A stretch of DNA of 64,000 bases from the NCBI GenBank assembly GCA_977020255.1, contig CDROCS010003798.1:124001-188000 (forward strand). Direction: 5' to 3'. This DNA comes from Obrimoposthia wandeli. Taxonomy: Eukaryota. The notes below the pieces were generated by a model. The model saw only the letters and a program-made list of their open reading frames with translations, made no database searches and was not told where the DNA came from. The position numbers were made by a program, and so were the translations under genes. How positions within the stretch are numbered: position 1 is the stretch's first letter; each line of letters opens with the position of its first letter. Shown here one piece after another: positions 9,503-9,664 of this stretch.

Positions 9503-9664
9503 CTGGAAATAAAACATTTATTAAAATCATTGTGAAAATCATTACTTTGTGAAAATTATTACTTTATGAAAATCATTACTTTGTGAAAAGTTACTTTATA
9601 AAAATTACTTATTGAAAGTTTACTTGGTGAAAATTTACTTGTTGAAAATTAGTAAAATACAAAC
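9503..9664 (-). other. Putative 162-nt spliceosomal intron in pPolB
   Basis: CCT G|GTTTGT...TTTATTTCCAG|GA CTG; removal gives NFFSIPGLTFASAFK, the conserved PGL segment. Interior is AT-rich with a degenerate ~17-bp tandem repeat. Confidence 0.75.

Follow-up and report, generated by a model that had tools for sequence, protein, structure and literature searches.

A probable spliceosomal intron conserved in place in the Polinton DNA polymerase gene of Obrimoposthia wandeli

A Polinton copy and its interrupted polymerase gene

We analysed a stretch of 64,000 nucleotides (the window) from the AT-rich, 1.35 Gb genome of Obrimoposthia wandeli (assembly GCA_977020255.1, contig CDROCS010003798.1, positions 124,001 to 188,000 of the forward strand). 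The window holds an element of about 14.3 kb between terminal inverted repeats at 7417..8014 and 20908..21769, of which the right one ends in an AGTAG terminus and the left one lacks its outer end, leaving the target duplication of this copy unreadable. Six of ten long sister copies have both AGTAG termini; four of these six show an exact 6-bp target duplication, one a duplication with 5/6 positions matching and one none. On its minus strand the element encodes a retroviral-like integrase with a chromodomain (14982..15812; PF00665 with E 3e-11, PF00385 weak), a packaging ATPase (16527..17192; PF04665 with E 1.4e-4, slightly below the curated cut-off), an adenain-like protease (11987..12355; feature score 0.96, PF00770 on 14-16% of cluster members, no Pfam match, no E-value) and the C-terminal part of a double jelly-roll major capsid protein (12394..13164; feature score 0.97, PF21738 on 17-18% of cluster members), an assignment with a low recognition value and likewise neither Pfam match nor E-value. 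Though each is weak, the ATPase, protease-like and capsid-like assignments all point in one direction, that of a Polinton. Accessory genes at 17641..19651, also on the minus strand, encode a dual-specificity phosphatase, a RING and a BIR (inhibitor-of-apoptosis-like) protein (PF00782, PF13920 and PF00653, all above cut-off). The element is a Polinton/Maverick. Its copy in the window is dead, a fossil of its family, since the polymerase gene (pPolB) carries stops and frameshifts in both exons, about 856 nt are deleted at 10364/10365 (in pPolB exon 2) and about 800 nt at 18451/18453, and the left end is absent.

Elsewhere in the window, tandem arrays occupy 3396-4440 (16-bp unit, 65 copies, 95% matches) and 41038-41651 (45-bp unit, about 11 copies), and two inverted-repeat pairs (175 nt at 98%, and 33-40 nt), about 1.2 kb apart, resemble small DNA transposons at 32307-33907 and 45410-46651. 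Strong negative GC and AT skew extends over 7 kb at 51000-58000, as a long one-strand coding region would give.

The pPolB gene lies on the minus strand. Its exon 2 (9665..11261) comprises the N-terminal region, an endonuclease VII-like domain and the exonuclease, and its exon 3 (8099..9502), frameshifted in the window copy, the polymerase domain; PF03175 is above cut-off in both exons of sister copies. Between the two exons lies a 162-nt insert (9503..9664, minus strand), which is very probably a genuine major-spliceosome (GT-AG) intron of the replicase gene, here called intron 2. It splits the Gly codon of S-I-P-G-L-T-F after the first base (phase 1), at a site with the exonuclease on one side (PF03175 positions 6-160) and the polymerase on the other (198-386). 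An earlier note on this DNA had described a 162-nt GT-AG insert splitting the PGL segment of the Polinton polymerase, and its coordinates proved exact, on the minus strand.

The insert has 19.8% G+C and contains stops in all three frames, five of them in the upstream frame. It begins with GTTTGT (9659..9664, preceded by an exon G) and ends with TTTTATTTCCAG, a pyrimidine-rich 3' splice site closing in CAG (9503..9514) and part of a T-rich tract; the nearest other AG upstream of this acceptor is at -44, with none within 42 nt. The branch-point consensus is YTRAY. A weak match to it lies at -22 (9520..9524, minus strand), and matches at -40..-10 occur in 48 of 65 copies, against an AT-rich background in which the motif is common. 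Tandem repeats found in this subfamily only fill the interior at 9530..9649 (Tandem Repeats Finder: period 15-17, 7.6 copies, 79-81% matches). The donor of the window's family has T at +3 and +4, unlike the usual GTAAGT, which counts against reading the insert as an intron. Donors outside this family read GTTAGA, GTAAAT, GTTAGT and GTAAGA at the same place. Four host HSP70 introns that we inspected are GT-AG and all long, one having a GTTAGT donor like that of one Polinton family. Directly 3' of the intron, at 9430-9470 (minus strand), is a Ser/Pro-rich linker whose length varies among intron-bearing families and which is missing in intron-free homologues.

A second pPolB intron of 43 nt is probably located after the start codon. 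This putative intron 1 (11262..11304, minus strand, phase 0, GTGAGT...TTTCTAG) directly follows an ATG (11305..11307) that would be the start codon and the sole codon at the end of exon 1. The region could be matched in 19 of 40 loci, 17 reading ATG|GTAAGT, one ATG|GTAAAT and one decayed, and all 19 have a TAG end before the same exon; the motif has 1,724 matches in the genome (control 0), and ATG|GTAAGA occurs in two more distant families. Since another in-frame ATG lies three codons downstream, intron 1 is in principle dispensable for the protein. When one sister copy was scanned crudely by eye for sites resembling donors, no clear intron emerged beyond these two in pPolB, the scan itself having missed the acceptor of the known intron.

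The insert in sister copies, distant families and homologues

Searching the genome at the DNA level yielded 3,247 candidates; we retrieved 30 of the 40 best, among which was the locus in the window. In all 30 closest loci the insert sits at the same base and in the same phase, with GT and AG, at lengths of 142-169 nt that fall 12/9/9 into the three length classes; hence it is incidental that the 162 nt of the window's intron are a multiple of three. Because the query of this search contained the insert, motif counts were run in addition. The upstream codons joined to GTTTGTAT have 2,159 matches in the genome against none for the reversed control, and this junction is thus not due to chance. 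The earlier concern that the insert might be private to the window's dead copy is dispelled by these 2,159 junctions, by the 30/30 closest loci and by the occurrence of the insert in several families. The joined exon-exon motif has no match in the genome, and a second joined motif has three (control 1), all of them 3' ends of introns. Among 4,253 genome matches to the upstream motif alone (control 43), we chose two sets of polymerase loci, in which 0/20 and 0/17 were intron-free, the second set being 20 hand-picked loci less three chance matches. Altogether, neither the genome motif counts nor the loci examined contained an intron-free junction of the intron-bearing clade. As an aside, a 150-aa piece of the polymerase gave 32,658 first-look candidates in the genome, a very heavy Polinton load.

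A broader view came from 40 loci hand-picked among the first 100 of the junction matches, motif variants being favoured. Their inserts measure 93-517 nt, three interrupted and four mis-delimited ones being left out of this range, and have several unrelated interiors. Pooling 110 loci with duplicates yielded 65 distinct resolved copies of 42-517 nt (length classes 20/31/14), none of which (0/65) is both a multiple of three and stop-free. The acceptor is AG in 60 of the 65; the counts of donor GT are biased, as copies were chosen by a motif that contains GT. With the two acceptor letters left free, the first 100 of 1,543 main-type matches include 98 with AG, and the first 100 of 385 from older pyrimidine-rich subfamilies include 85, with 12 of the 15 others being AT. 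Non-AG acceptors are commoner in these older subfamilies than in the main type, some of them in near-identical duplicates, and the excess suggests that some copies spread in trans.

The same 65 copies bear on whether the exonuclease and the polymerase could instead be two proteins of a split gene, the second starting, without splicing, at an ATG that lies close to the 3' border of an AT-rich spacer. We regard this as very improbable. An in-frame ATG open to the downstream exon does occur in the insert of 37 of the 65 copies, the window's included, but 28 have none, among them all nine of the GTTAGA, GTAAAT and GTTAGT families, and in such ATG-less families the first downstream residues (L-T/S-F-A-S-A) are conserved all the same. 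Moreover, which ATG is in frame shifts with single-base length variants, and in a spacer one would not see nine sequence types all retain a GT behind the same base and an AG ahead of the following one.

Counting those of the window's own family together with those of distant ones, the intron comes in nine or more sequence types, 42-517 nt long, which all interrupt one codon in families whose protein identity goes down to about 61%. The distant families are 61-87% identical to the window's over about 150 upstream residues, and the introns that they carry at this base are of other types: GTTAGA..TAG (42-49 nt), GTTAGT..TTACAG (76 nt), GTAAAT..CCCAG, GTTTGTTT..TTTCAG, GTAAGA..TTCCAG and a type of 172 nt. 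Different families have no intron interior in common. One subfamily (L051, L057, L058, L066, L071 and L083-L087) has one to several units in the intron that are 90-93% similar to the terminal repeat of the element itself and bring the intron to 187-517 nt. In L148, L158 and L169 other mobile elements lie in or beside the intron, some beginning with the AGTAG Polinton terminus.

This diversity also speaks to a self-splicing or mobile intron, be it of group I or II or an introner transposon, for which group I introns (PMC12220804) and introners (PMC12166617) reported in Polinton-like elements of protists, as far as the accessible text of these papers goes, provide a precedent. Here, Rfam, searched for group I/II catalytic RNA structure up to E 1, gave no match, the window's insert is 80% A+T, forms of the intron go down to 42 nt, and their interiors are not common to families. 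We give this explanation hardly any weight at all, although an introner origin so ancient that its traces have since been erased is possible. Introners are recognised by homologous sequence at many unrelated sites, and every copy seen is at the same codon.

Homologues are contiguous at the site. From 151 homologous proteins, 132 reach it and 101 extend more than 100 residues beyond, and in 93 of these 101 a hydrophobic-S/T-aromatic motif follows straight after the split codon. The gene is contiguous from end to end in three metagenomic relatives (45% identity), and a sister family in the same genome, about 58% identical upstream and about 52% downstream, is contiguous at the site in 30/30 loci and has open frames of about 1,240 codons. 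The expectation of the earlier note that excision restores the reading was borne out by these contiguous homologues and sister loci, which at the same time have no need of residues from the insert. Many genome copies of this intron-free family have open frames of about 1,240 codons, and three of its loci (L128-L130) show GTAAGT and a T-rich stretch ending in TTCAG upstream of the first in-frame Met, possibly a 5' intron of their own. Further searches gave one protein with a 163-aa piece, three pattern matches but no relative among viral contigs, and no match to P0002 in a PDB sequence search. Two GT-AG introns at other positions (1240-1341 and about 2060-2150) were seen in the distant metagenomic polymerase L095.

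In separate trees of the two exons, the intron-bearing families form one clade with 100/100 support (7 of 23 rows and 5 of 19 rows, two rows per tree being left out for stops or frameshifts); its stem measures 0.37 and 0.39 changes per site, and the intron-free rows fall outside it. The sister group of this clade has 84/68 support in the upstream tree and no resolution in the downstream one. As the intron-bearing rows form one clade in both trees with the intron-free rows outside, the simplest reading would be one gain on the stem of the clade. The intron would thus represent an old single gain, retained through amplification.

Selection on the exons and the proposed origin of the intron

If the insert had inactivated the gene, its carriers would have spread non-autonomously with the polymerase of the intron-free sister family. 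Indeed, that family's open frames of some 1,240 codons are present in the same genome, nearly all intron-bearing copies examined are broken and some non-AG acceptors recur. Variants were compared in 67 (upstream exon) and 65 (downstream exon) of 70 copies. Variants common to at least five copies have a pN/pS of 0.06 upstream and 0.09 downstream and are mostly synonymous (132/161 and 105/138), while single-copy variants, with 0.84 and 1.25, are neutral. This pattern argues for purifying selection on both exons flanking the intron and mostly rules out inactivation; since the shared variants are mostly synonymous in both exons, the gene was apparently functional while it carried the intron. Nor would a dead gene be expected to leave families that are 61-87% identical with open frames on both sides of the intron, as we find. 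Loss of function is therefore a very unlikely account of the intron-bearing families as a whole, although mobilisation in trans may explain single sub-lineages. We infer that the intron-bearing families made their own polymerase from spliced message while multiplying.

Taken together, the fixed place and phase, the GT and AG ends, the free length and sequence, the stops in the unspliced frame, selection on the exons, the single clade and the intron-free relatives argue for a GT-AG intron, and splicing of intron 2 would be expected from these features. Among the contigs of four sequencing runs (one sample, one study), which behave like DNA, none of 15 joints inspected, out of 148, matches the intron. 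We thus propose that the element is transcribed in the nucleus, that the host spliceosome takes the GT donor and the YAG acceptor and removes the intron, and that the exonuclease and polymerase exons are thereby joined to encode one polymerase protein. The intron would have been gained once, on the stem of a radiation of families of which the genome now contains thousands of copies, its retention being made possible by nuclear transcription and removal by the host spliceosome. After the gain its interior may have drifted in each family, by repeat growth in the window's subfamily and by acquisition of a terminal-repeat piece in another. The earlier note had attributed the growth of the intron to tandem duplication, and this holds as a later increase in length within the window's subfamily; it fails as an account of the origin, because introns of 42-49 nt and 76 nt that lack repeats occupy this site in more distant families.

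How the intron arose may be hinted at by its borders. The start of the intron in the window's family resembles the next exon at 12 of 24 nt (P about 0.01-0.02, noticed post hoc), and both junctions of the GTTAGA family read AG|GTT, as a short duplication of an AG|GT site could leave. The 3' end of the intron in the window's family did not exceed the null in the duplication test. With this weak 5' support, none at the 3' end and donors that differ between families, origin by duplication stays a hint.

A more far-reaching reading would make the Pro-Gly codon pair a repeated hotspot of Polinton intron gain via AG|GT duplication and the intron a host-dependent switch, in which unspliced message would give the nuclease half only. 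Hints come from the AG|GTT junctions of the GTTAGA family, from the likeness of intron start and exon, from the end of homologue P0116 and from an intron in L094. P0116 falls outside the intron-bearing clade, with the intron-free rows at 97/98 support, and its C-terminus reads G-I-P-G-K-Y-I-I-N-K-Q, with a stop seven residues after the Gly and, at the level of the protein only, a G-K compatible with a GTAAG donor; such an end would result if translation ran on into an intron located there. L094, a metagenomic 98% relative of P0116 that ends before this site, has a short GTAAGT..TTTAG intron at another site of the gene (L094:237-294). We consider this reading doubtful, and a single old gain with splicing by the host is the account that we prefer.

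Relation to known systems and implications

With the animal Polinton/Maverick elements described so far (Barreat and Katzourakis 2021, PMC8097293; Widen et al., bioRxiv 10.1101/2022.07.12.499685; Jeong et al. 2023, PMC10748475), as portrayed in the accessible parts of these papers, the element shares terminal inverted repeats, a 6-bp target duplication and genes for pPolB, integrase, ATPase, protease and capsid; unlike in those, its replicase contains a well-supported intron and probably a second one. The consulted sections of PMC8097293, bioRxiv 10.1101/2022.07.12.499685 and PMC10120064 describe Polintons and related integrated viruses as having intronless core genes, and one of these works rests its gene calling on that. 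The literature searched, outside of which lie the founding papers (Kapitonov and Jurka 2006), Repbase, the 2024 review PMC11426020 and supplements, nowhere describes a Polinton polymerase with a conserved spliceosomal intron, and the accessible text of PMC8502044, PMC11296320, bioRxiv 809541, bioRxiv 2026.07.28.741278, PMC11414722 and PMC10748475 contains nothing on such an intron.

The surprise is tempered by what is already known of spliced viral polymerase genes and of introners in Polinton-like elements. Going by the title of a 1992 work of Grabherr et al., a chlorovirus DNA polymerase gene reportedly contains an intron, which would make it alike as a viral family B polymerase gene in need of nuclear splicing. 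The polymerase of giant viruses is RNA-primed. Spliceosomal introns are also reported in pandoraviruses (PMC5995976, in part); chloroviruses and pandoraviruses are giant viruses, whereas here we deal with an integrating Polinton present in thousands of copies in one genome.

The adenovirus E2B region resembles the probable intron 1 in that a replication gene is preceded by a tiny exon with the start codon, but in the Polinton gene the exon ends right after the ATG, the intron is about 43 nt long and another ATG follows three codons on. The adenovirus polymerase, like pTP, has a tiny first exon. In a table of PMC2397415, E2B pTP is given a 9-nt first exon and the polymerase is entered as unspliced.

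Closest in setting are the eupolintoviral elements of dinoflagellates, which likewise have spliceosomal-type introns inside Polinton-like elements: the consulted part of PMC12166617 presents these introners as recent transposon insertions, about 25% of them in coding regions, selected against and in carriers of unclear intactness. By comparison, the intron described here appears old, fixed and conserved in position, and it lies in the polymerase gene, between exons apparently under selection. Group I introns in Polinton-like elements of protists are on record in the available text of PMC12220804.

In summary, our study points to an intron that would tie these Polintons to nuclear transcription and to the host spliceosome. 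Screens that assume intronless core genes would score a lineage with a spliced replicase as degraded, and counts of intact Polintons may therefore be too low. With one placed gain, thousands of copies and, in the same genome, a sister family that lacks the intron, the system would provide a rare test bed for intron gain, in which nine or more outcomes of the evolution of splice sites and length may be compared at one codon.
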